From the IMG/VR virus record IMGVR_UViG_3300021403_000005: 64,000 nt of DNA. One strand, 5' to 3'. The position numbers were made by a program, and so were the translations under genes. The notes under the pieces are model-generated. The model ran no database searches and was not told the origin of the DNA. It saw nothing but the letters and a program-made list of their open reading frames with translations. How positions within the stretch are numbered: the first letter of the stretch is position 1; each line of letters begins with the position of its first letter. Below are positions 14,910-50,535 of the stretch, piece after piece. Source of the DNA: a virus.

Positions 14910-15461
14910 ATGAGAGAGTCGTGGCGGCGTGTAATTCTGAATAGAGAGATTCTGCCTTATGAAGTCTCCAATCAAGGCCAAGTAAGACGGCTGCCTGGAC
15001 CAGACGGCGGCGGTCACACATGGCCACTTATGATAATGAGCCAACATACGCACCGTGCTGGGTACAAGCAGCTTGGACTGAGGTGGGTAAGTCAGCACGG
15101 TAGGAAATCCAAGGTCATCGTAGTTCACAAACTTGTCGCGTTTGCCTTTCTTGAGCCGCCTCCCGGTCAATATGGACGCGGGAAGATAGCCATTAACCAT
15201 AAAAACTCTATAAAGTCCGATAACAGAGCCGAGAATCTTGAGTGGGTTACATATCAACAGAACAGCAATCACGCTATGATTAATGGTCGAATGTCTGTTG
15301 GAGAAAGCAATCCGAATAGCCGATTTACTAATGACGATGTTCTTGAAATCAGACGTAGATTCGATGCGGGAGAAAGCATGAGGTCCCTGGCACGATCTTT
15401 TAATAGCAGCCGATGCCCTATTATGATGATTTGCAAAAGGTTGACTTGGAAACATCTTTAA
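14910..15461 (+). CDS. NUMOD4-HNH homing endonuclease with C-terminal HTH, antisense to the late operon
   Basis: YEVSNQGQVR (NUMOD4), VHKLVAFAF, INHKNSIKSDNRAENLEWVT (HNH), GESNPNSRFTNDDVLEIR. Confidence 0.9.
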   Translation: MRESWRRVILNREILPYEVSNQGQVRRLPGPDGGGHTWPLMIMSQHTHRAGYKQLGLRWVSQHGRKSKVIVVHKLVAFAFLEPPPGQYGRGKIAINHKNSIKSDNRAENLEWVTYQQNSNHAMINGRMSVGESNPNSRFTNDDVLEIRRRFDAGESMRSLARSFNSSRCPIMMICKRLTWKHL

Positions 15462-39295: not shown

Positions 39296-40924
39296 TCAGA
39301 AGGGATAGAGGGCGGCTGTTGCCGATGGAGAACTATAAGCTAGTTCGTCCGCAGAAGCCATTGACTGTTCCTCACGGCGCAAAGCAAAACCCGACTCTCG
39401 CAAGTAACGAAGCGCTTGCGATGTGGAATCCACCAAGTCGTCCCGCGCACCTTTCGGGAAAAGCGCACACTGATCTATGACCATATCGGCCCAACTCTTG
39501 TCCGGGGCGTAGATCATCTCATCGGCAAAGAGATGCTGGATGGCGTGGACCCTGGCCACCTTGTCGCCGTACTTGGTGGGGTCCAGAAGTTCCACCCCCA
39601 GCTTGCCAGTGCCACGTAGCAATCGGTGAAGTTCATGCCCAATCGAGAGGCCGCTGGCCTTTGATTCCACCAAGAGCCTATCGACCGGGAATCTGGCCTC
39701 AACCGTGGTCACCGTACTGATCGTGCATGTCTGTATAACCTTTTGAACTAACTCGTAAAATTGCAACCGTTCCTGCCAAGCATAGATCAGCATAACCTTG
39801 GGATTCCCGGCCACATCGCGAAACACCCCCCAGATGGTCAGGGCTGAGGCGTCGTTTTCCTGCTTGATGGTGTAGGCGGTATCCAGGGAGGCGAGGATGT
39901 ACTCGAATCCAGGGTACTTCCCCTTTTCCCACATCTGCCAGAAATGGCGCTTAATAATTGAGCCACCACGCGGTTCCGGGGTCTGCTGGTACTGTCCGGC
40001 CCAGGCGTGAGGCCCTTTGTCGCGCTCCAGGCCCTTGCAGATTTCCTGGGTGAATCGCTCGGGCCAAGCTAGCTCGTAATCCGTAATTCGAGGGTCCTCC
40101 CAGAATACATCCTTGTCTTGCACATCTTTCACATCATCCCCAACAAATGTCTTAATACTACCATCAGGCGCATAGGCATTAACATACACCTTGGGAATGT
40201 ACTCCATGGGAATCCAGAGGTGGGTGTAGCCCATCTCCCGGCTGAGTGCGATTCCGCTAACATCGTCCTCGTGGGTGCGCTGCTGGATGACAGCGATGAT
40301 GCTCTCTTGGGGATTGTTCAGGCGGTCGGGCATGATTTCTGTAAACCACATCTTGGTGGTTTCTCGAACTAGCTCCGATTCCACATCAAATGGGTTATTC
40401 GGGTCGTCAATGATGATAATGTCGGCCCGTTCCCCCGTACCGATGCCGCCGACCGAGGTAGCCAGCTTCCAGCCGGTCTTGTCGTTAGCGAACTTGATCT
40501 TGGTGAATTGCTCATTGGAAATACCAAAGCGGTTGCCCCACATGCGCCTGTAGCGCTCGCTCACCACGATATTGCGGCAACGCATATTATCGCGTTCCGT
40601 CAAATGGTTAGAGTAGGCGGCGCACATGAATCGCGTCCACGGCTTGTTCTGCGGCCCCCATATCCAGGCAGGCCAGAACACGTCAGTCAGCAGCGACTTG
40701 GTAAAACCCGGCGGCACATTAATAAGGAGGCGCTTGATGTGCCCCTCGGACGCTGCCTGAAGGTGATCGGCAATGGCTTCAATGGCCCAGCCCCGAATAA
40801 ATGGGATCGCTGGCTCAACCACCGGCCACACGTACTCGGCAAAGTCGATGAGGCTACCTTCATACTTGCGATTGACCAGAAGCTTGTCGATTTGCCGGTA
40901 GGCGGTCTTGACCAGTTCGCTCAT
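39296..40924 (-). CDS. terL: Terminase large subunit
   Basis: LLINVPPGFTKS (Walker A region), IIIIDD (Walker B), YILASLDTA, VESKASG, GARDDLVDSTSQAL (RNase H-like nuclease). Confidence 0.95.
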   Translation of the reverse strand: MSELVKTAYRQIDKLLVNRKYEGSLIDFAEYVWPVVEPAIPFIRGWAIEAIADHLQAASEGHIKRLLINVPPGFTKSLLTDVFWPAWIWGPQNKPWTRFMCAAYSNHLTERDNMRCRNIVVSERYRRMWGNRFGISNEQFTKIKFANDKTGWKLATSVGGIGTGERADIIIIDDPNNPFDVESELVRETTKMWFTEIMPDRLNNPQESIIAVIQQRTHEDDVSGIALSREMGYTHLWIPMEYIPKVYVNAYAPDGSIKTFVGDDVKDVQDKDVFWEDPRITDYELAWPERFTQEICKGLERDKGPHAWAGQYQQTPEPRGGSIIKRHFWQMWEKGKYPGFEYILASLDTAYTIKQENDASALTIWGVFRDVAGNPKVMLIYAWQERLQFYELVQKVIQTCTISTVTTVEARFPVDRLLVESKASGLSIGHELHRLLRGTGKLGVELLDPTKYGDKVARVHAIQHLFADEMIYAPDKSWADMVIDQCALFPKGARDDLVDSTSQALRYLRESGFALRREEQSMASADELAYSSPSATAALYPF

Positions 40925-40994
40925 TAAAAATCCAGCGGTGGAAAACTCGACAACAATGATTGTCGCTTTCCGGGGCAGCTTATACCGAATCACA

Positions 40995-41351
40995 ATGGAA
41001 GAGAATGCTAAGACCTCACACACCGTCATCTACAATCGGCTTTGGAATATCCAACCGGGCGAACAGATTATCTATTTCGTGGGATTCTTGGATGCCGAAC
41101 GCGATCCGCAACCTTCAGAGAGTCCGCTCAATAAGATCGCCAATCTCGCCTACCAGCTTATGCTGGAAGGTCGCGTGAGGCTTACGCAGCGACGCATCAT
41201 GGCGCCAGTCGTTCATGGCGGCATGGTCGATTGGCATCGTGGGGTCGGACAGGGCTTTGAATATATCGCTACGGGGACCACACCCAGGAAAGAAGCGATG
41301 AAAGTACCCGAAAGAACTCTCTACAACCCCCTCAGCAAGGTACTCAAATGA
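40995..41351 (+). CDS. Phage hypothetical protein, first gene of the plus-strand block
   Basis: PGEQIIYFVGFL...ANLAYQL..EGRVRLTQRR...FEYIA; ATGA coupling to the next gene. Confidence 0.6.
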   Translation: MEENAKTSHTVIYNRLWNIQPGEQIIYFVGFLDAERDPQPSESPLNKIANLAYQLMLEGRVRLTQRRIMAPVVHGGMVDWHRGVGQGFEYIATGTTPRKEAMKVPERTLYNPLSKVLK

Positions 41352-41569
41352 ACCGAAGCGATCTCGATGATTTGGAAGAGAAGATCATGGACGAATTCGC
41401 CAAGCGGCGCGCTCTCGGTGGATTCGATGCTAATGCCGCTACTATTCTGCTCTTGATTCGATGGGTTTACGAACTCACACGACACCTTAAGGATAAAGAG
41501 CCAAAATCCAAGGAAGCCGAAGTCGATCTTGCGGGAGCCAGAGTCGAACTACGCCCGAAGAAAAAATGA
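41348..41569 (+). CDS. Small hypothetical protein
   Basis: ATGA overlaps at both ends. Confidence 0.6.
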   Translation: MNRSDLDDLEEKIMDEFAKRRALGGFDANAATILLLIRWVYELTRHLKDKEPKSKEAEVDLAGARVELRPKKK

Positions 41570-42084
41570 CCCCTCCGTTAAGTACGTTCAATCTGGTCTT
41601 GATGCCATATCAGCAGCGCCTCCTGCGTCAGCAACACGTTGATTGGCTCAATGATAAAGAACTCATGAAGTATTCCGAGCAGCGCCATCGTAAGCATACG
41701 ATGGAGACGCAGCGCGAATACCTTTGGACCTTTCCTAAGACCTCGCACATCTGGCTCATTGAATTTGGCCCACCGCCAGTCCCGGAACTGCGAGCCATCG
41801 GCACCATCACAGCCTACATAGACCAGCCCAACAAAGTTGCCAATATGGGCATCTTGCTTGGGGAAGAGAAGGGCTATGGCCATGGTTTGGCAGCATGGTC
41901 AGCGGTGATGGAGTTTCTATTCGCAGATGGAATCCGCAAGGTTGAGGCTGGATGTATGGCCGTTAATGAGCCGATGCGGTTGCTTGCCACCAAAGCCAAG
42001 ATGAATGTCGAAGGGGTTATTCCTGAGCATTATCTATTCGAAGGTAAGCCCTGCGATCTCATTAACTATGGGAAAACCAAGTGA
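41566..42084 (+). CDS. RimJ/RimL-type GNAT N-acetyltransferase (PseH-like role)
   Basis: HVDWLND.E.MKYSEQRH, IGTITA, MGILLGE.KGYG.G..AW, RKVEAG.MA.NEPM. Confidence 0.8.
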   Translation: MTPPLSTFNLVLMPYQQRLLRQQHVDWLNDKELMKYSEQRHRKHTMETQREYLWTFPKTSHIWLIEFGPPPVPELRAIGTITAYIDQPNKVANMGILLGEEKGYGHGLAAWSAVMEFLFADGIRKVEAGCMAVNEPMRLLATKAKMNVEGVIPEHYLFEGKPCDLINYGKTK

Positions 42085-42653
42085 AGGTTCTGCTGCTTTC
42101 GCCCTACCCAGAGCGCCTTGCAGATATTTTGCGAGATGATGATGTTGTTCCTCTCGTCTCCAAAATTCACTGGCCAAACGTCGATTTCGTTATCTCCTAT
42201 GGACACCGCGAGATCATAAGAGAGCCGTACTTATCCGAATACAAAGGACGGATAATAAACATCCACCTCAGCCTATTACCATGGAATCGCGGCGCCGATC
42301 CGAATTTCTGGGCGTGGTTTGATAATACTCCACATGGCGTCTCCATCCATCACATAGATGATGGTATAGATTCTGGACCGATCATCTTTAACGGCACAGT
42401 TGATATGACCCTCGATCCAATCGGAACACTGGAGTCATCATACGGCATCTTGCAGAACCACGCCGTATATCTCTTTGGTATTCTCTGGGAAAACTTTAAG
42501 TACAAAGGTAAGCTGCCCCGAGGCCGCCCTAATGAGGGGGGCACCTACCATAGGTCCAAAGACAAAGAGCAATGGATGGCGCGATTCCCGCTCGGCTGGA
42601 AAACTCCTGTCGCAGATGTAATGGCACTCGGAAGAAAAGCCAATGGCCGCTAG
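42081..42653 (+). CDS. Sugar N-formyltransferase (Formyl_trans_N only)
   Basis: VISYGHREII, IINIHLSLLPWNRGADPNFW, GVSIHHIDDGIDSGPII; 190 aa with no tRNA-binding C-terminal domain. Confidence 0.85.
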   Translation: MKVLLLSPYPERLADILRDDDVVPLVSKIHWPNVDFVISYGHREIIREPYLSEYKGRIINIHLSLLPWNRGADPNFWAWFDNTPHGVSIHHIDDGIDSGPIIFNGTVDMTLDPIGTLESSYGILQNHAVYLFGILWENFKYKGKLPRGRPNEGGTYHRSKDKEQWMARFPLGWKTPVADVMALGRKANGR

Positions 42654-43329
42654 CCAAACCGAGAGATTCCTGCATGGCGCTGGCGATGATTACTACATGC
42701 GCAATCGCAATGATTTCGGCCAAAAGGAAAAGGACCCGGTTCTCTCGATACTAAAAGCCACCGAAATTAAGCCTACATCCATACTGGAAATAGGCTGCGC
42801 TAATGGCTGGCGCCTCATGAAGCTCAAGGGACTCTACAACTGTCATGTACGAGGCATTGATCCCTCGACTATGGCTATCCAAGAAGGATCGAAGGATTTA
42901 GGTGGCGATCTACAGGTGGGGGTCGCCCAACACATACCATTTGATGCCAACAGCTTCGATCTGGTGATATTCGGCTACTTTATGTTTCTCTGTGAACCAA
43001 ATTCTTGGTTCCAGATCATGGCTGAGGCCAATCGTGTTCTAGCAGATAAAGGGCACATCGCCCATTACGATTACATCAGCGCCCGACCTTTGGTTTGGGA
43101 ATACGCCCCAGCCAAAGCGTCCATTCGCGAAAAGGAATGCCGAGCCTGGGTCTATGACCACGCCAAAATGTGGCTCAGTCACCCCGGCTACTTTGCCGTC
43201 GCAGAAGGCACCGGACCTTGTGAATTAGGTAAAACCGTTGCCTGCCAAGTTATGGTCACATTGTTACAGAAAGACATGACTCGTTCGTTTCATAAACCAG
43301 ACGGCACGATACCTGAGTTTACACAATGA
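42643..43329 (+). CDS. Class I SAM methyltransferase (nonulosonate-cluster type)
   Basis: F..GAGDDYY.RN, ILEIGCANGWRL, GIDPS, FDLVIFG. Confidence 0.85.
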   Translation: MAASQTERFLHGAGDDYYMRNRNDFGQKEKDPVLSILKATEIKPTSILEIGCANGWRLMKLKGLYNCHVRGIDPSTMAIQEGSKDLGGDLQVGVAQHIPFDANSFDLVIFGYFMFLCEPNSWFQIMAEANRVLADKGHIAHYDYISARPLVWEYAPAKASIREKECRAWVYDHAKMWLSHPGYFAVAEGTGPCELGKTVACQVMVTLLQKDMTRSFHKPDGTIPEFTQ

Positions 43330-44279
43330 CCAAGACATTCGGGATTCTCGGCCACGGTTCTATTGGAAAGCGCCATGCACAGAATCTCGTGCGGCTTGGT
43401 CACAAGGTCCTAACCTTTGATCCAAGCAATCCTATCCCCAAGTCGGCGCCACCATTCATAGCAATGCACGATGAACAAGACTTAATTAACAATGCCGATG
43501 CTATTCTCATATGCAGCCCCACGGCACTGCATTATGAGCATCTCGTTAAAGGCCTCTTTGCCAGGAAACCGATCTTCGTTGAAAAGCCCATAGGAGATAC
43601 CGAGAAGTGTCACTTCTTGGGATCGGTCATGGGACGCGATCCATTTATGGTTGGCTACAATCTGCGCTTCCATTCCTGCGTTAAGAAAGCCAAGGAGTGG
43701 CTCGACAACGGTATTCTTGGCCAGATTCAATGGGCGAGCTTCGTGGTGGGGCAGAAGAACGACAAGCTCGACTACCTCCGCGACGGTGTAATCCTCAACT
43801 GGTCGCATGAGATTGATCTGGCGCTGTACCTACTGGGTCCAGCGAAGGTGTTACAGGCTTCCGCTCGTGTCACAGGTTCCGGTGAGGATATAGCCGACAT
43901 TTGGCTACAACATGACAGCGGCGCTCGATCATCCATCCACTTGGACTATGTAACCAAGCCTGAGATTCGTGAGGCTTGGATTGTCGGCGCCAATAACAGG
44001 ATTGGTATGGACCTTGTTGGGCGCAATGCCTCGCTAGGTGAATACGTCCATCGCGGAGACGACAGCTTCGATCAGAACTATGTAGAGGAAATACGGGCTT
44101 TTATTGACCGCATAGATGGCAAGGAGACAATCGGATGCAACGCAAAAGAAGGGTTGGCCGCCCTAGAAATATGCCTCCAAGCGCGCCGCCTAGCCGGACT
44201 ATCGAGCGAGACGTTCGCCCACTCGATTCCTTGGACGCCGCCTTCGGAATCTACACCGACCCCGAAATCCAACTCCTGA
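43326..44279 (+). CDS. Gfo/Idh/MocA NAD-dependent oxidoreductase
   Basis: GILGHGSIGKRH, ICSPTALH, IFVEKP, VGYNLRFH, SHEIDLALYLLG. Confidence 0.9.
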   Translation: MTKTFGILGHGSIGKRHAQNLVRLGHKVLTFDPSNPIPKSAPPFIAMHDEQDLINNADAILICSPTALHYEHLVKGLFARKPIFVEKPIGDTEKCHFLGSVMGRDPFMVGYNLRFHSCVKKAKEWLDNGILGQIQWASFVVGQKNDKLDYLRDGVILNWSHEIDLALYLLGPAKVLQASARVTGSGEDIADIWLQHDSGARSSIHLDYVTKPEIREAWIVGANNRIGMDLVGRNASLGEYVHRGDDSFDQNYVEEIRAFIDRIDGKETIGCNAKEGLAALEICLQARRLAGLSSETFAHSIPWTPPSESTPTPKSNS

Positions 44280-44430
44280 TTAAGTCACACGCCAAGAATA
44301 TCATTGGCTTCAGCTATGGCGGTCCTACAGGAGAGATGACGATAGAAACACACAATGCGATTCTACGCGAGGCTAATCGCATCCTCTTCCTGTGCAAGAG
44401 TATGCAGCTAACTACCAAACGAACACGGTC

Positions 44431-44595
44431 ATGAAAGCCTCTAAATACTCCGTCCAATATACCGATCACGGTACAAAGCAGGAACACTGCTCGATCTGCA
44501 AACATTACGTCTCGCCTGTGATCTGCGCTGTGGTTGAGGGCCGCATCAAGGCTGGCGGCTGGTGCAAGAAATTCGAGAGGAAAAACGAAGAATGA
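44431..44595 (+). CDS. HiPIP-like [4Fe-4S] protein lacking a Tat signal
   Basis: KASKYSVQY...HCSICKHY...CAVVEGRI..GGWCKKF; four Cys in HiPIP spacing; ATGA overlaps at both ends. Confidence 0.7.
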   Translation: MKASKYSVQYTDHGTKQEHCSICKHYVSPVICAVVEGRIKAGGWCKKFERKNEE

Positions 44596-46631
44596 AGGTC
44601 TTAGCGATTGCGCAGGCTCGGATGGGTTCAACGCGCGTGCCCGGCAAGGTTATGCGGAGGATGGGAGAGTATAACCTTCCAGTCTTACATTGGGTGTACG
44701 ACGCCCTTATCCAAGCTGAAGGCATCGACCAAGCCGTTATAGCTACCTCTACTTTGTCAGAGGATAATATTATTGCGGGGTACTGTAGAGATACCGCGAT
44801 TCCATTCTTTCGTGGCAGTGCGCTGGATGTGCTGGACCGATTCTATCAATGTGCGCTTCGTTATGATGCTGATATAGTCTTGAGATTAACCTGCGACTGC
44901 CCATTCCTTGACCCTCAAGTTATTGGCGAAGTCATCAAGCTTAGGAACATAACCAATGCCGATTACACCTCAAACATTGATCCCCCAAGCTACCCCGATG
45001 GACTCGATGTTGAATGCTTCACCTTCAAGGCTTTGGAAGCCGCTTGGGAAGAAGCGACTCGACCAACAGACCGAGATTGCGTTACTCAGTTTATCGTTCG
45101 TAATCGCCATCGCTTTAGCGCTGCTAATCTACGGTGTCCTCTGCCTGGGCTAGATAAGGAGCGCTGGGTTCTCGATACCGAAGCTGACTGGAACTTCTGC
45201 AAAGCAGTAGCGGAGCATATCCGCTGTGGTGGTCAACCCTATCTTAAAATACTCAACATCCTCGATGAACATCCCGAGATTCGTAAACTCAACCCAGGAA
45301 TCCGCAATGAGCGATTCTTTGAAGCAATCAACACAGAGCGATTACCCCCACGAACATTTGAGCGGACTGCGGGAGTATTCAAGCGAGCCATCAAGACTAT
45401 ACCATTTGGGGCGCAGACATTCTCGAAGTCTCACCTTCAGTTTCCGCGCGATCATAGTCCTCTTTATTGCAGCCATGCTGATGGGGCTAGGCTCTTTGAT
45501 GTTGACGGAAACGATTACGTTGACTTGGTTAACGCTGTGCTGCCTGTTGTACTTGGCTACCGTGATCCTGATGTGGATGACGCAATTCGACTGCAACTGG
45601 ACCGAGGAATTTCCTTCAGTCTCGCGACTGAGCTTGAAGCGGAGCTATCGGAAACCCTCTGCCGACTTATACCGTGCGCACAAGCGGTCAAACTCGGCAA
45701 ATCAGGAACGGACGTTACCACTGCTGCCATTCGTCTAGCGCGAGCCTATACAGGCAAGAGCCACGTTCTGTTGTCCGGCTATCATGGCTGGGCAGATTGG
45801 TCTATGGCGGCGAGTCAGCGCGACGCTGGGATTCCGTTGGCCACCAAGCTTCTATCACACAAATTCGAGTACGGTAACTACAACGACGAAGAACTGAATC
45901 GCTGGATTGGCGATGCCGCTGCGATCATTGTCGAACCGGACAGCAATCCAGAATACCTAAAGTTCCTGCGTGAAGCCTGCGACGAACACAATGTCGTTCT
46001 GATCTTCGATGAAATCATTACCGGCTTCCGTTATCACATCGGTGGCGCCCAAGCGTACTGGAACGTAACACCAGATTTAGCCACCTTCGGCAAGGCGATG
46101 GCTAATGGGATGCCGATTTCGGCCCTCGTCGGCAAGCGTGACATAATGGCTCGCATGTCACCACCGAACAACATCTTCTATTCCGGCACGATGTTCGGTG
46201 AAACCCTCTCTATTTCTGCCGCAATAGCTACAATCAAGAAAATGGAAAAAGAGGATGTTATTGGCTACCTCTATCACGTTGGGGCAGAGATTCATTCTGA
46301 AGTTGCCCCAAGCATTGCTTTCCATGGCCTTCAAGACGTTATCAAACTAGACGGCCACTGGACACGCAAAATCATCAATATCCACGACCACAGGAACGCC
46401 ACTAAGGAAGAAATCAAGGCTCTGTTCATGCAGGAGATGATCCAGGGGGGCGTGCTAGTCATTGCCTCGCACAATGTCTCCTACGCTATTAAACAGAACG
46501 AGGTTAAGCGCATCCTCACTGCTTACAATCGAGCTTTGACCACGATCAATCAGGCTTTGGAGAACAACAACATCTCCGACTACATAGATGCTCCGCTCAT
46601 CGGTGTGGCGCCGCTGCGGACCACAGCATGA
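44592..46631 (+). CDS. SpsF/PseF-like cytidylyltransferase fused to a class III (GSA-aminomutase-like) PLP aminotransferase
   Basis: N-terminal QARMGSTRVPGKV, FRGS.LDVLDRFY, RLTCDCPFLDP, LDTEADW; C-terminal DVDGNDYVD, LIFDEIITGFR, ATFGKAMANG.PISA. Confidence 0.9.
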   Translation: MKVLAIAQARMGSTRVPGKVMRRMGEYNLPVLHWVYDALIQAEGIDQAVIATSTLSEDNIIAGYCRDTAIPFFRGSALDVLDRFYQCALRYDADIVLRLTCDCPFLDPQVIGEVIKLRNITNADYTSNIDPPSYPDGLDVECFTFKALEAAWEEATRPTDRDCVTQFIVRNRHRFSAANLRCPLPGLDKERWVLDTEADWNFCKAVAEHIRCGGQPYLKILNILDEHPEIRKLNPGIRNERFFEAINTERLPPRTFERTAGVFKRAIKTIPFGAQTFSKSHLQFPRDHSPLYCSHADGARLFDVDGNDYVDLVNAVLPVVLGYRDPDVDDAIRLQLDRGISFSLATELEAELSETLCRLIPCAQAVKLGKSGTDVTTAAIRLARAYTGKSHVLLSGYHGWADWSMAASQRDAGIPLATKLLSHKFEYGNYNDEELNRWIGDAAAIIVEPDSNPEYLKFLREACDEHNVVLIFDEIITGFRYHIGGAQAYWNVTPDLATFGKAMANGMPISALVGKRDIMARMSPPNNIFYSGTMFGETLSISAAIATIKKMEKEDVIGYLYHVGAEIHSEVAPSIAFHGLQDVIKLDGHWTRKIINIHDHRNATKEEIKALFMQEMIQGGVLVIASHNVSYAIKQNEVKRILTAYNRALTTINQALENNNISDYIDAPLIGVAPLRTTA

Positions 46632-47569
46632 AGAAAGTCTTAATTTCGGGTGGCACAGGTTCGTTTGGCAATGCGTTCGCACGACGCATTATAGCCCATA
46701 ACCCTGAGCGCGTGGTGATCTATTCGCGCGATGAGCAGAAGCAGGAAGAAATGGCACGGCGATTCCCGCAGCGATTCTTTCGATTCTTCCTAGGAGATGT
46801 GCGCGACCAGGACCGCCTCGAATACGCTATGCACGACATTGATACGGTTATCCATGCAGCAGCACTAAAGATTGTGCCTGCTTTGGAGTATAACCCCACC
46901 GAATGTGTTGCGACCAATATCGGTGGTGCCCAGAATGTCGTTAGAGCCGCCATCAACAGCGGAGTTAAACGAGTCATCGCCCTGTCCACGGATAAGGCGG
47001 TCCACCCGATCAACCTTTACGGGGCATCGAAGCTGGCGGCGGAGAAAATCTTCATTGCCGCCAATGCTCTCGCTGCGGGCGCAACTGCTTTCAGCGTTGT
47101 ACGTTACGGTAATGTCGTGGGTAGCCGTGGGAGCGTTGTTCCTTATTTTAAGTCTCTTGCCGCCGCCGGGAAGCCACTGACAGTTACCGATACGCGCATG
47201 ACGCGGTTCTGGATCACGCTGGATCAAGCGGTCGATCTGGTCCGGCTTGCTCACACCAAGATGACCGGGCGAGAGATTTACATCCCGAAGATTCCGTCCG
47301 TAAAGATCATGGACTTGGCGCTGGCCATATCTCCGGCATGGGAAGTCACCGGCATCAGGCCAGGAGAGAAGCTGCATGAGTGTCTCCTGACCAGGGATGA
47401 GGCGCGCGATACGCTCGATATGGGCGATTACTACATTATCACCCATCCTGGATGGCAAGGTCAGATCGGCTCTGGAATCCCAGTCACGCCTGACTTTACC
47501 TACACCTCTGACACCAATCATCAATGGCTCAGTATAGAACAACTCAAGGAATCGCTCAATGAAGCCTGA
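46628..47569 (+). CDS. pseB: UDP-GlcNAc 4,6-dehydratase (inverting), PseB
   Basis: GGTGSFG, YSRDEQKQ, GDVRD, HAAALKIVP..EYNP.E, LSTDKAVHPINLYGASK, VRYGNVVGSRGSVVP, TRFWITL, GIRPGEKLHE. Confidence 0.92.
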   Translation: MKKVLISGGTGSFGNAFARRIIAHNPERVVIYSRDEQKQEEMARRFPQRFFRFFLGDVRDQDRLEYAMHDIDTVIHAAALKIVPALEYNPTECVATNIGGAQNVVRAAINSGVKRVIALSTDKAVHPINLYGASKLAAEKIFIAANALAAGATAFSVVRYGNVVGSRGSVVPYFKSLAAAGKPLTVTDTRMTRFWITLDQAVDLVRLAHTKMTGREIYIPKIPSVKIMDLALAISPAWEVTGIRPGEKLHECLLTRDEARDTLDMGDYYIITHPGWQGQIGSGIPVTPDFTYTSDTNHQWLSIEQLKESLNEA

Positions 47570-47738
47570 GAACATCATAAACGAAATCACTCAGGTTCGA
47601 TCACGCAATAATTTTCTCTGGATGAGTCTCCTTACATTAGCCATGAAGGCCAAGCCTAAAGAAGCCAAGAAAATCTTACAGGCTATCAACGAAAACGATA
47701 AGGAGATTTCCGGGTGGCTAGAAAAGCTCCAACACTAA
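47559..47738 (+). CDS. Unlisted 59-aa helical protein between pseB and pseC
   Basis: Hand translation: MKPENIINEITQVRSRNNFLWMSLLTLAMKAKPKEAKKILQAINENDKEISGWLEKLQH; AAGGA RBS; overlaps both neighbours. Confidence 0.65.
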   Translation: MKPENIINEITQVRSRNNFLWMSLLTLAMKAKPKEAKKILQAINENDKEISGWLEKLQH

Positions 47739-48829
47739 AGCGGCTACCTAAATTCTTCACGGTAGGATCACAGGAGAGAAGGAATGTGCAACGCGCGCTT
47801 GGGCGGCAGCTATCTGGCTATGTTGGCGGTATCCATAATGCTGGTTACTGGGTTGACCGCCTCTCCGTCGAGTGGACCAACACGTTTCGATGCCGATACG
47901 CTATACCCTGCAATTCAGCTACCTCGGGTTTGTTGGCTTGTTGCATGGCAGCTTCTATTGGCCCCGGAGATGAAGTTTGGGCATCCTCGTACACTATGTC
48001 CGCGTCTGGGGCCTGTGCCAAAGTATTGGGTGCCAGTGTTAAATTCATCGACATAGACTTGGTACGCTATTCTCTCAATAGCCCTACCTCTTGGACAACA
48101 AAGCCAAAAGCGATCATCGTTACCAACCTATTCGGGCACCCCGCCTACTTAGCGCAGATACGCAGAACATGCGACGATAATGGCATCGTCATGATCGAGG
48201 ATAACGCTCAATCACCCTTCGCAATGGAGAACGGTAAATATGCAGGGACCATCGGACACTACGGCGTCTTTAGCTTCAACGTCCACAAGCACATCCAATC
48301 TGGAGAGGGAGGAGTGGTTACGACAAACGATGCAGAAAGTGCTGAGAGAGTTAGAAACGCAGTTAATCATGGAGAACTGGCTGCCAAAAACCCCTCCATC
48401 GGACTCAACCTGCGAATGACGGAGCCAATAGCTGCGATTGCCTCGGCGCAGCTACATAGGGCGCACGACATTATCGAGAATCGGCGCCATCTGGCAGATG
48501 AACTTACCGACGCTGCGAATCAATCGGCCTACCTGATTCCTCCGGTGGAATCGAAGGGCTGCAAGCATGTCTATTACATTTGGGCGTGCAGGGTATTGGA
48601 TGGCAAGCGGGAAGCGTTCGTGACCTTTCTCAACAAGCACTGCTTTCCGGTACGTGCTGGCTATTCCATACCTTTGCATAGGTTATTCAAAACCAACGAT
48701 CAGTGTCCACTGACCGAACGCATGGAGGACAGGGAACTGGTCAGCTTCGAGATTTGCATGTGGCGCCCGAATACCAGCGAAGTATCCAAGATGAAGCGCA
48801 TCATCAAGATAGCAGGAGAAAGCCTATGA
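47714..48829 (+). CDS. pseC: DegT/DnrJ/EryC1/StrS sugar aminotransferase (PseC role)
   Basis: CNSATSGL, IEDNAQSP, FSFNVHKHIQSGEGGVV (PLP Lys), GLNLRMTEPIAA, HVYY. Confidence 0.85.
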   Translation: MARKAPTLKRLPKFFTVGSQERRNVQRALGRQLSGYVGGIHNAGYWVDRLSVEWTNTFRCRYAIPCNSATSGLLACCMAASIGPGDEVWASSYTMSASGACAKVLGASVKFIDIDLVRYSLNSPTSWTTKPKAIIVTNLFGHPAYLAQIRRTCDDNGIVMIEDNAQSPFAMENGKYAGTIGHYGVFSFNVHKHIQSGEGGVVTTNDAESAERVRNAVNHGELAAKNPSIGLNLRMTEPIAAIASAQLHRAHDIIENRRHLADELTDAANQSAYLIPPVESKGCKHVYYIWACRVLDGKREAFVTFLNKHCFPVRAGYSIPLHRLFKTNDQCPLTERMEDRELVSFEICMWRPNTSEVSKMKRIIKIAGESL

Positions 48830-49215
48830 GTGCCATTAAGCAAAGATTCGTAACCTCAGCCCTTCCCGGCTTCTGCGTTGCAGAATTTATCCCCGGAGAC
48901 GCTGAAAGAGGGCCAGAAATATTCCTAGAACCTATTGTTACATGGGTAACGGAAATCGAAGAAACTGAAAAGTATGCCACAAGTAAAGATTATTTCCTGA
49001 TGGCAACTTATCCGGTCTGCTACGGGATGCTCACTGATAGCACGGTATCTTATGTAATATATAGCCCAGATGGCAAATACTGCTTTTCTGGGGATTGTAC
49101 TGTTAATTCTAAAGAAGAAGCCATCCTAGTCTTTATAGAGAGAGAAAAGATAAAACAGGAAATACAGCAACGGCTGCGAGATAAGCAATTGTTGAAAGGA
49201 TATAAGAAATCATGA
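48826..49215 (+). CDS. AT-rich hypothetical protein
   Basis: AGGAG RBS and ATGA overlap with the pseC stop. Confidence 0.6.
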   Translation: MSAIKQRFVTSALPGFCVAEFIPGDAERGPEIFLEPIVTWVTEIEETEKYATSKDYFLMATYPVCYGMLTDSTVSYVIYSPDGKYCFSGDCTVNSKEEAILVFIEREKIKQEIQQRLRDKQLLKGYKKS

Positions 49216-49544
49216 AAATCGCAATAAAAAAACGCAACCAAAGGATCAAGCCCGCACAAAAGAAGGCAAGCGACGACAAGGTTGCCAAGTACATTGTTAA
49301 GCTTCTAAGTAGAATCGAAAGTCTTGAAAAGGAATTAGGGCAATGCAAAGAGCAGCTTAATCAAAACTGGTATCACCGAGAGAAAAGAGAACAGCGGTTA
49401 GCAAAACTTTTGACTCCAGACCAAAAAGAAGCTGCCAGAATATCTGGCATTTCTCAGTATGAATATGCCGTGCGGTTTATGGAAATTCAATACGCCAAGA
49501 CTGCCACCAATATATTAACGGGTAATCTTGATGATGATCGCTAA
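49212..49544 (+). CDS. Coiled-coil hypothetical protein
   Basis: ATGA overlap; LTPDQKEAARISGISQYEYA resembles the C-terminus of the scaffold protein. Confidence 0.6.
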   Translation: MKIAIKKRNQRIKPAQKKASDDKVAKYIVKLLSRIESLEKELGQCKEQLNQNWYHREKREQRLAKLLTPDQKEAARISGISQYEYAVRFMEIQYAKTATNILTGNLDDDR

Positions 49545-50535
49545 GACCGAGATCGCTCAGTGTGCCTTCCCTTATATTGTTTGTGAAATATCAGGCAATC
49601 ACGGTGGTAGCCTAGAACGCGCCAAACAGCTTATCAAAGAAGCCAAGAAAGCTGGAGCGGCTGCGGTCAAGACGCAATGCTACAACGCTGATACATTGAC
49701 GTTGAACTGCAACAAGCTGGACTTCATCGTACAGGGCGGTCTATGGCAGGGCAAGACGCTATACGAACTTTATCAATCCGCTTGTACTCCACCGGAATGG
49801 CACAAGGAGCTATACAGTGTCGCCCATGACGAAGGCATTACGATCTTTTCTTCGGTGTTCGACCGCAGTGGGATCGACCTACTCCAATCTCTCGGCTGTC
49901 CGGCATATAAGATTGCGAGCTTTGAAGTGGCCGACCTACATCTTATCGAGTACGCAGCTAAGACAGATAAACCAATCATCATCTCGACGGGCCTCGCCAA
50001 CAACCAAGAAATAAGAGAAGCGCGCGAGGCGGCTGGTCCCAACTCCGCGTTCCTGCATTGCACCAGCGAGTATCCAGCCGATACCGACAATGCCGATATG
50101 TGGCGCGTCCATAGGATATACGAACTGCTCCACAAAGAGTGCCCTGTAGGGCTGTCCGATCATAGCAGCGGGCATCTGTTGCCGATCATGGCGACCGCGA
50201 TGGGGGCGGCGATCATTGAGAAGCACCTCAAACTGCGATTGGCGCCCCCAAGCGAGGACGATGCGTTTAGCCTGACACCGGCCGAGTTTGCGGGCATGGT
50301 CACGGCCGTCAAGCAAGCCTGGAGCGCGGGGCTGGAGCATGAGCAGCCTGCGAATCCATCACGGCAATTCCGCAGAAGCCTTTATGTTATCGAGGACATA
50401 CGAGAAGGCGAGCAGTTCACCGAACTGAACATACGCTCGATCCGGCCGGGCTTTGGAATGCCGCCGAAGAACTATTCCAAGATGCTGGGGAAAAGAGCCA
50501 AAAAAGATTATAAGCGCGGCGACCCCTTATGGTAG
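49531..50535 (+). CDS. pseI: NeuB-family nonulosonate synthase with SAF domain, PseI
   Basis: EISGNHGGS, VKTQCY..DT, LYELY, IFSSVFD, YKIASFE, IIISTG, LHCTSEYP, VGLSDHS, IIEKH, FRRSLY, RSIRPGFG. Confidence 0.9.
   Translation: MMIAKTEIAQCAFPYIVCEISGNHGGSLERAKQLIKEAKKAGAAAVKTQCYNADTLTLNCNKLDFIVQGGLWQGKTLYELYQSACTPPEWHKELYSVAHDEGITIFSSVFDRSGIDLLQSLGCPAYKIASFEVADLHLIEYAAKTDKPIIISTGLANNQEIREAREAAGPNSAFLHCTSEYPADTDNADMWRVHRIYELLHKECPVGLSDHSSGHLLPIMATAMGAAIIEKHLKLRLAPPSEDDAFSLTPAEFAGMVTAVKQAWSAGLEHEQPANPSRQFRRSLYVIEDIREGEQFTELNIRSIRPGFGMPPKNYSKMLGKRAKKDYKRGDPLW

Follow-up and report, generated by a model that had tools for sequence, protein, structure and literature searches.

The segment at 42081–46631, within a plus-strand operon at 41.5–50.5 kb of IMG/VR virus record IMGVR_UViG_3300021403_000005, may represent the tailoring half of a variant pseudaminic acid (Pse) pathway that a soil phage family took from bacteria. 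The window, that is the whole stretch of 64,000 nucleotides analysed here, derives from a phage of ∼75 kb, and the operon in question neighbours its terminase gene. At the centre of the operon lies a module of three activities: a Gfo/Idh/MocA oxidoreductase (hereafter Gfo) and, in a single downstream protein, an SpsF/FlmC-type cytidylyltransferase domain fused to a class-III pyridoxal phosphate (PLP) aminotransferase domain. This amination module appears to be a widespread variant of the Pse pathway, and it may plausibly introduce a third amine into the sugar. The sequence-only reading of the window had listed four tailoring genes beyond the core Pse path, encoding a formyltransferase, a methyltransferase, a dehydrogenase and the aminotransferase-cytidylyltransferase fusion. 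All four are present at the coordinates it gave and intact, with family matches well above chance, and both domains of the fusion lie in one frame. The interpretation built on these genes is partly supported by the data presented below.

The view that the three activities belong together derives largely from bacteria. Among 301 Desulfobacterota genomes sampled, 52 contained an SpsF-type gene (SpsF is the JGI name for homologues of the fusion), and 20 loci were mapped. Two of these (L115 and L116) are canonical, with the order PseB-PseC-SpsF-PseG::PseH-PseI, and contain neither an aminotransferase nor an oxidoreductase. A class-III aminotransferase is encoded by 17 of the mapped loci, in nine cases as an SpsF::aminotransferase fusion of 683–749 amino acids, and in 16 of the 17 an oxidoreductase belonging to the Gfo, aldo-keto reductase (AKR) or short-chain dehydrogenase/reductase (SDR) families is located beside the aminotransferase or fused to it. 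Desulfobacterota clusters with the module display the order PseB-PseC-Gfo-SpsF::aminotransferase-PseG::PseH-PseI, while a Geobacter cluster is arranged pseB-pseC-AKR-methyltransferase-SpsF-aminotransferase-PseG-PseH-PseI. The bacterial fusions share 38–42% identity with the N-terminal domain of the phage protein, and one bacterial locus, L109, encodes the same combination as the phage (a PseJ-like protein, a GNAT2-type acyltransferase, Gfo and the fusion). In P0142, a metagenome protein of 985 amino acids from ENA, an AKR is joined to the other two domains in an AKR::SpsF::aminotransferase triple fusion, the SpsF::aminotransferase part of which is 36% identical to the phage protein over 674 residues, the whole length of the phage fusion. 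Long homologues of the cluster AKR show a related pattern, with AKR and CTP_transf_3 domains occurring together in 22 of 26. These patterns of partners and fusions argue that the trio is one functional unit in which the oxidoreductase can be swapped between families, and they provide comparative-genomics backing for the dehydrogenase-plus-transaminase logic proposed in the sequence-only reading. The same gene arrangement, with no function assigned, is found in the group I flagellin glycosylation islands of Aeromonas (∼90 strains; PMC7874193) and in the lipopolysaccharide (LPS) cluster of Legionella pneumophila Sg6/Sg12 (PMC3694923).

Other arrangements were observed in the mapped loci. L117 (9808–15644), a nonulosonate cluster of uncommon composition, contains an SpsF-like gene, a split transketolase-like pair, a class-III aminotransferase::SDR fusion of 742 amino acids and a NeuB-like synthase. 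In L102 (16267–19856) and L122 a second module, comprising an SpsF-like gene, a Gfo/Idh/MocA gene, a DegT aminotransferase and a GNAT, adjoins the first, and L122 has a second NeuB-type synthase as well. These second modules may belong to a second nonulosonate pathway.

In the phages the module is a constant feature. We compared 18 related IMG/VR loci, several from genomes of 73–77 kb; five of the relatives (L084, L085, L087, L096 and L097, or G001–G005) were checked and rated 100% complete. The common order is the terminase gene on the minus strand followed, on the opposite strand, by GNAT, a variable slot, methyltransferase, Gfo, fusion, PseB, PseC and PseI. Every one of these loci contains the genes for GNAT, Gfo, the fusion, PseB and PseC, in an unchanging order, and identity of the fusion to the window copy ranges from 49 to 69%. 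PseI is missing from four loci (truncated or divergent) and the methyltransferase from one. In each of the 18 the Gfo gene immediately precedes the fusion, an arrangement shared by bacterial loci L104–L107, L109, L110 and L121. At least 120 metagenome protein clusters contain the same two-domain fusion at 56–93% identity, many on contigs of 70–77 kb. The GenBank phage collection yielded no close relative of the fusion, just hemL/bioA-like matches and a distant SpsF-like match in a marine virus. Two additional genes were seen within individual operons of the family: an RmlD-like reductase between PseB and PseC in L085–L087 (L085, 13157–14029; L086, 11463–12452) and an HNH_3 endonuclease between PseC and PseI in L098 (14209–14733).

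The operon and its enzymes

The operon diverges from the genes for the large terminase and portal, and its genes, preceded here by the terminase, are as follows.

39296–41029, minus strand: large terminase (phrog_38, E = 9e-82)
41566–42084, plus strand: GNAT N-acyltransferase, first gene of the operon (Pfam PF13302, Acetyltransf_3, E = 8e-10)
42081–42653, plus strand: PseJ-type N-formyltransferase, 190 amino acids (Formyl_trans_N, E = 5e-15)
42643–43329, plus strand: class-I S-adenosylmethionine (SAM)-dependent methyltransferase, 228 amino acids (Pfam Methyltransf_25/11, E = 1e-12)
43326–44279, plus strand: Gfo/Idh/MocA NAD-dependent oxidoreductase, 317 amino acids (PF01408 and PF22725, E = 1e-9 each)
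44431–44595, plus strand: open reading frame (ORF) of 54 amino acids with four cysteines, read from the sequence
44592–45350 (boundary approximate), plus strand: SpsF/FlmC-type cytidylyltransferase domain of the fusion (CTP_transf_3, PF02348, E = 5e-21)
45351–46631, plus strand: class-III, HemL-like PLP aminotransferase domain of the fusion (Aminotran_3, PF00202, E = 1e-43)
46628–47569, plus strand: PseB, inverting UDP-GlcNAc 4,6-dehydratase (TIGR03589, 433 bits, cut-off 408)
47714–48829, plus strand: DegT-family aminotransferase at the PseC position (PF01041, E = 1e-51)
48826–49544, plus strand: two small ORFs of ∼129 and ∼110 amino acids between PseC and PseI
49528–50535, plus strand: PseI, pseudaminic acid synthase (TIGR03586, 401 bits, cut-off 340)

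Start and stop codons overlap at the GNAT/formyltransferase, formyltransferase/methyltransferase, methyltransferase/Gfo and fusion/PseB junctions, and most neighbours overlap by 4–11 bases, which fits a single translationally coupled unit. The apparent gap at 44280–44591 contains the 54-amino-acid ORF; its stop codon and the start codon of the fusion share bases (ATGA), again indicative of translational coupling. The small protein displays the cysteine pattern C-x2-C...C...GWC. It has a homologue in L081, located 3' of PseI (15149–15298; 47% identity, E = 5e-9), which gives a weak, below-cut-off match to PF01355 (HIPIP, E = 0.0016), while the window copy has no Pfam match; the protein is possibly HiPIP-like. 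The best NCBIfam match of the DegT aminotransferase is PseC, at 143 bits and under the cut-off. The ORF pair at 48826–49544 produced no convincing family match and was not detected in the related phages by tblastn.

The fusion most likely starts at the ATG at 44592 (MKVLAIAQARMGS...), a start shared by all relatives, the GTG at 44562 being disfavoured. Within the protein CTP_transf_3 covers residues 15–165 (E = 5e-21) and Aminotran_3 residues 298–637 (E = 1e-43). The N-terminal domain matches the PDB entry 6oew, a ‘cytidylyltransferase', over residues 2–232 (E = 5e-24), and its nucleotide loop (R11, S14, T15, R16, G19 and K20) is invariant in an alignment of 25 fusions, in which D103 is also conserved. 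No match to PseF (TIGR03584, cut-off 205.7 bits) was obtained for this domain at E<0.1, and in the relatives the first ∼60 residues alone match that model, at 14–34 bits. The domain is the sole cytidylyltransferase found in the five complete phage relatives, and a homologous domain, again the only cytidylyltransferase of the locus, occupies the position of PseF in the canonical bacterial clusters L115 and L116. In Caulobacter the CMP-Pse step is assigned to FlmC, and legionaminic acid use by Bacillus subtilis needs SpsF (PMC7591256, PMC7439481). These data place the N-terminal domain in the SpsF/FlmC type (COG1861), not PseF, making it a candidate CMP-nonulosonate synthetase.

In the C-terminal domain the PLP lysine, K502 (FGKAMANG), and D474 (IFDEIITGFR) are invariant in the 25 fusion sequences. 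The domain scores 308 bits against PRK06209 and 235 bits against hemL (TIGR00713, cut-off 527), in both cases under the cut-off. Its relatives in the PDB include glutamate-1-semialdehyde aminomutase (GSAM; 5i92, E = 2e-63), enzymes that aminate sugars at C-6' (7lld and 9au3) and NeoN. An identity as HemL itself was rejected, given the score of 235 against 527 bits and the setting of the domain, which shares its polypeptide with a sugar cytidylyltransferase and its operon with Pse genes, not the tetrapyrrole context expected of HemL. When bacterial genomes were scanned with the fusion, only genuine hemL-like genes were recovered (28–37% identity, aminotransferase domain alone), and these had no sugar-gene neighbours. 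One candidate HemL-like gene, rkpO, was discarded because RkpO is the equivalent of PseG (PMC7591256).

The Gfo motifs likewise show no variation among 19 homologues from phages and bacteria; they comprise GxGxxG (G9, G11 and G14), E86-K87-P88, which includes the catalytic lysine, and H161 and D164 of the C-terminal domain. The NCBIfam matches of the enzyme are led by inositol 2-dehydrogenase, followed by UDP-GlcNAc 3-dehydrogenase (E = 2e-21), and include glycoside 3-dehydrogenases; the Gfo of bacterial locus L106 matches UDP-GlcNAc 3-dehydrogenase at 129 bits. The methyltransferase, present in 17 of the 18 related viral loci, has bacterial homologues placed between AKR and SpsF in L102 and L118. 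When its family profile was compared with the PDB, phosphoethanolamine N-methyltransferase was the best match (E = 5e-14), ahead of MitM and BamL, which is weak evidence that the enzyme carries out N-methylation. The GNAT, found in all 18 loci, does not match PseH (TIGR03585, cut-off 93.1 bits), and its relatives reach 16–21 bits. A profile of the phage GNATs matches the GNAT2 group of bacteria with 99.9% and E = 9e-34, against 97.2% and E = 3e-11 for the PseH-like group. By these comparisons the phage enzyme is the free-standing GNAT2 type of the variant bacterial clusters and not PseH.

The formyltransferase is well supported by sequence comparison as a PseJ-type enzyme, and thus as known biology. 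Residues 2–181 align with residues 2–185 of solved PseJ (6ci2/6ci4; phmmer against the PDB, E = 3e-36), and the phage enzyme keeps the PseJ motifs IN-I-H...D in the aligned segments INIHLSLLPWNRGADP and IDDGIDSGPII. On the pattern of PurN-type enzymes we take these motifs to be the Asn-His...Asp catalytic triad of N10-formyl-THF transferases. The likeness to PseJ (PDB 6ci2, 6ci4, 6ci5 and 6edk) extends to length (190 versus 192 amino acids, aligned end to end), the INxH...D catalytic motif, an N terminus shorter than that of PurN-type enzymes and the Pse operon context. PseJ has been credited with completing the route to Pse5Ac7Fo (PMC11040635), so that the formyl decoration proposed in the sequence-only reading is strongly backed. 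The phage differs in that its PseJ shares the operon with a GNAT and that the gene is sparsely distributed in the phage family. Among the 18 relatives PseJ was seen in L084 and L095 only, at another position, and in L082, L092, L093, L094, L096, L097 and L098 the interval between GNAT and methyltransferase is occupied by an ORF of 258–297 amino acids, which in both copies scanned (L096 and L098) encodes a SAM methyltransferase. PseJ is thus an accessory gene in this family.

Proposed reaction and alternatives

These components suggest the following pathway. PseB, the PseC-type aminotransferase and PseI would construct the nonulosonate backbone, and PseJ would formylate the amine introduced by PseC to give the N7-formyl group, a known reaction. 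Gfo would next turn one of the secondary hydroxyls of the nonulosonate into a ketone, with the C8 hydroxyl beside the terminal methyl as the likeliest site, the direction and the carbon both being assumed. The class-III aminotransferase domain, if it operates in the aminating direction, would convert this ketone to an amine, and the GNAT and/or the SAM methyltransferase could cap it, the targets of both enzymes being putative. The fused SpsF-type domain would generate the CMP-activated sugar, with its order relative to amination provisional. The predicted product is a CMP-5,7,8-triamino nonulosonate carrying formyl, acetyl and/or methyl decorations.

We regard the installation of a third backbone amine by the module as about evenly balanced between true and false. 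The location of that amine at C8, which relies on analogy, is a more tentative proposal that we would not favour over its negation. On general chemical grounds, a 4-keto group would risk loss of the anomeric substituent by elimination; an 8-oxo group would be a methyl ketone, which suits an aminotransferase of class III. An experimental precedent is provided by two proteins from Acinetobacter baumannii prophages, EpaA (CTP_transf_3::Aldo_ket_red) and EpaB (SDR), which convert Pse5Ac7Ac to its 8-epimer, as determined by NMR (PMC12053666). This result indicates that a module of this type works at C8 of Pse. An 8-keto intermediate is the usual route for C8 epimerization, the mechanism not being stated in the EpaA/EpaB paper. 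If EpaA and EpaB do use such an intermediate, then an aminotransferase in place of the second reductase would yield 8-amino-8-deoxy-Pse. The full product, a CMP-activated 8-amino-8-deoxy Pse derivative that in this phage would bear N7-formyl together with N8-acetyl and/or methyl groups, is accordingly offered as a possibility of roughly one in three.

In an alternative explanation the module changes a configuration or swaps a group with no added nitrogen, leading to a diamino nonulosonate isomer. Epimerization via a ketone, conversion of an amine to a hydroxyl and a HemL-style 1,2 amino/carbonyl shift are examples of such reactions. The sole tested relative of the module type is an epimerase system, the structures closest to the aminotransferase domain are those of aminomutases (GSAM 5i92), and the AKR and SDR partners belong to families that are typically reductases. 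Against this, a PLP enzyme is superfluous for epimerization, and most loci combine one oxidoreductase with the aminotransferase, which would create a ketone with no second reductase to remove it. The score against hemL is also far under the cut-off, and the domain has IPFGAQTFSKSH at the position where GSAM has a sequence of the PGGVNSPVRAF type. We consider an isomer unlikely on this evidence.

Somewhat less probable still is that the pair acts off the backbone, either on an N-acyl chain (for example 3-hydroxybutyryl to 3-aminobutyryl) or by making a small amine for later attachment; any extra nitrogen would then belong to a substituent. Many N-acyl groups are known on Pse and legionaminic acid, such as that of Pse5Ac7(3RHb) (PMC11040635), and class-III aminotransferases prefer methyl ketones and omega-carbonyls. 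The operon, however, encodes no acyl-CoA ligase, acyl carrier protein or hydroxyacyl transferase, and the repeated fusion of the aminotransferase and oxidoreductase to a nonulosonate cytidylyltransferase points to the sugar as the substrate.

Gfo could also act earlier, on the UDP-hexose, by oxidizing C3 for amination at that position (the logic of WbpB/GnnA) or by catalysing a GH109-like elimination of UDP that would stand in for the missing PseG. The second NCBIfam match of Gfo, UDP-GlcNAc 3-dehydrogenase, the lack of PseG in the five complete relatives and the existence of Aeromonas islands that have the module and no pseG (PMC7874193) are consistent with this proposal. Most bacterial clusters nevertheless contain a bona fide PseG (225 bits, above cut-off) alongside Gfo, so Gfo is not a general substitute for PseG, and AKR and SDR enzymes can take the position of Gfo. 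Furthermore, since O6 of the nonulosonate derives from O3 of the hexose, a 3-amino hexose would prevent formation of the nonulosonate pyranose ring. Action on the hexose is therefore improbable. Finally, although the phage pathway is incomplete, with no PseG or PseH, it is highly improbable that the tailoring genes are mere cargo or degenerating, or that the aminotransferase serves unrelated metabolism and ordinary Pse alone is made, as the reading frames are undamaged and coupled in translation, catalytic residues are invariant across the aligned phage and bacterial homologues, and the 18 loci retain a common gene order despite fusion identities of just 49–69%; by these sequence criteria the operon consists of working genes and not relics.

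Several observations weigh against a triamino product. A search of one literature library revealed no description of a triamino nonulosonate, and searches on the AKR/aminotransferase/cytidylyltransferase module and on the Shewanella flagellin glycan provided no functional assignment. The redox reaction could run in reverse, since the AKR and SDR partners are usually reductases. The link to EpaA is an analogy of shared domain architecture. The five complete relatives contain no match to PseG (TIGR03590) at E≤0.01, and none was found among the operon ORFs of the window; in this phage family the release of the hexose from UDP may be supplied by the host. In the same five genomes nothing reaches the PseH cut-off, and a NeuA-type PseF is likewise missing. 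Taken alone, the phage pathway is short of its N-acetylation and UDP-release steps. Neither the lack of PseG and a true PseH nor the SpsF type of the cytidylyltransferase, the sole candidate for CMP activation, figured in the sequence-only reading. Where relatives lack PseJ, ordinary N7 acetylation may fall to their one GNAT, and the methyltransferases alone would then be left for the new amine. In Aeromonas subgroup IA the module is present on an island without pseH (PMC7874193), a poor fit to the notion that an extra amine needs an extra acyltransferase.

Significance and known systems

On flagella, capsules and LPS, nonulosonic acids decide what immune systems and phages recognize, and the chemistry known for them is confined to diamino backbones with varied N-acyl groups. 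A module that is found widely in bacteria (Aeromonas, Legionella and Desulfobacterota) and fixed in a large uncultured phage family, and that has no assigned reaction, is relevant to this chemistry. The formyl part contributed by PseJ is already known; the new angle is the fixation of the module in a phage family beside swappable decorating enzymes. If the proposed reaction is correct, the product, as the first nonulosonic acid with three amino groups, would define a new class of sugar, and a function would be available for the module of many bacterial Pse clusters. It would also suggest a hypothesis for unsolved glycans, among them the Pse-like sugar of 403 Da from Aeromonas hydrophila AH-1 (PMC4691044). 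The exchange of PseJ and methyltransferase genes in one slot would in that case reflect phages diversifying the decorations of the sugar. That a phage should encode tailoring steps in the absence of PseG and PseH also raises the prospect of a division of the pathway between phage and host.

Relative to the canonical PseB-PseC-PseH-PseG-PseI-PseF pathway of Campylobacter and Helicobacter, the phage operon retains PseB and PseI, both above their cut-offs, and a DegT enzyme at the PseC position. Its SpsF/FlmC-type domain resembles the Caulobacter flm and B. subtilis sps systems, and is the sole CMP-transferase, as in Caulobacter (PMC7591256, PMC7439481). The phage lacks PseG, PseH and a NeuA-type PseF, and has four to five extra enzymes. 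The clusters of Aeromonas, Legionella and Desulfobacterota (L102–L123) share the gene set around the cytidylyltransferase, in some cases with an embedded methyltransferase, but mostly have their own PseG and PseH, often fused, whereas the phage lacks both and uses the Gfo variant.

Oxidation of a hydroxyl followed by transamination is the strategy of KdnB/KdnA, which make Kdo8N, and of the aminoglycoside C-6' aminotransferases GenB and NeoN with their partner dehydrogenases, GenB and NeoN being HemL-like class-III enzymes among the solved relatives of the phage domain. KdnB is an iron-dependent alcohol dehydrogenase, the partner dehydrogenases in aminoglycoside pathways are flavin-dependent, and KdnA is not a class-III enzyme. 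The substrates, Kdo and aminoglycosides, also differ. The KdnB/KdnA precedent invoked in the sequence-only reading thus holds as an analogy and, because the enzyme families differ, fails as a family match. EpaA/EpaB, acting at C8 of Pse, is the closer system (PMC12053666): like the phage module it is phage-borne, fuses CTP_transf_3 to a tailoring domain, includes an oxidoreductase partner and functions in the context of Pse, and its combination of AKR and CTP_transf_3 recurs in the long homologues of the bacterial module AKR. The difference lies in the chemistry, as the phage pairs a single Gfo with a PLP aminotransferase, a combination that predicts amination, whereas EpaA and EpaB deploy two oxidoreductases (AKR and SDR, respectively) to epimerize C8.

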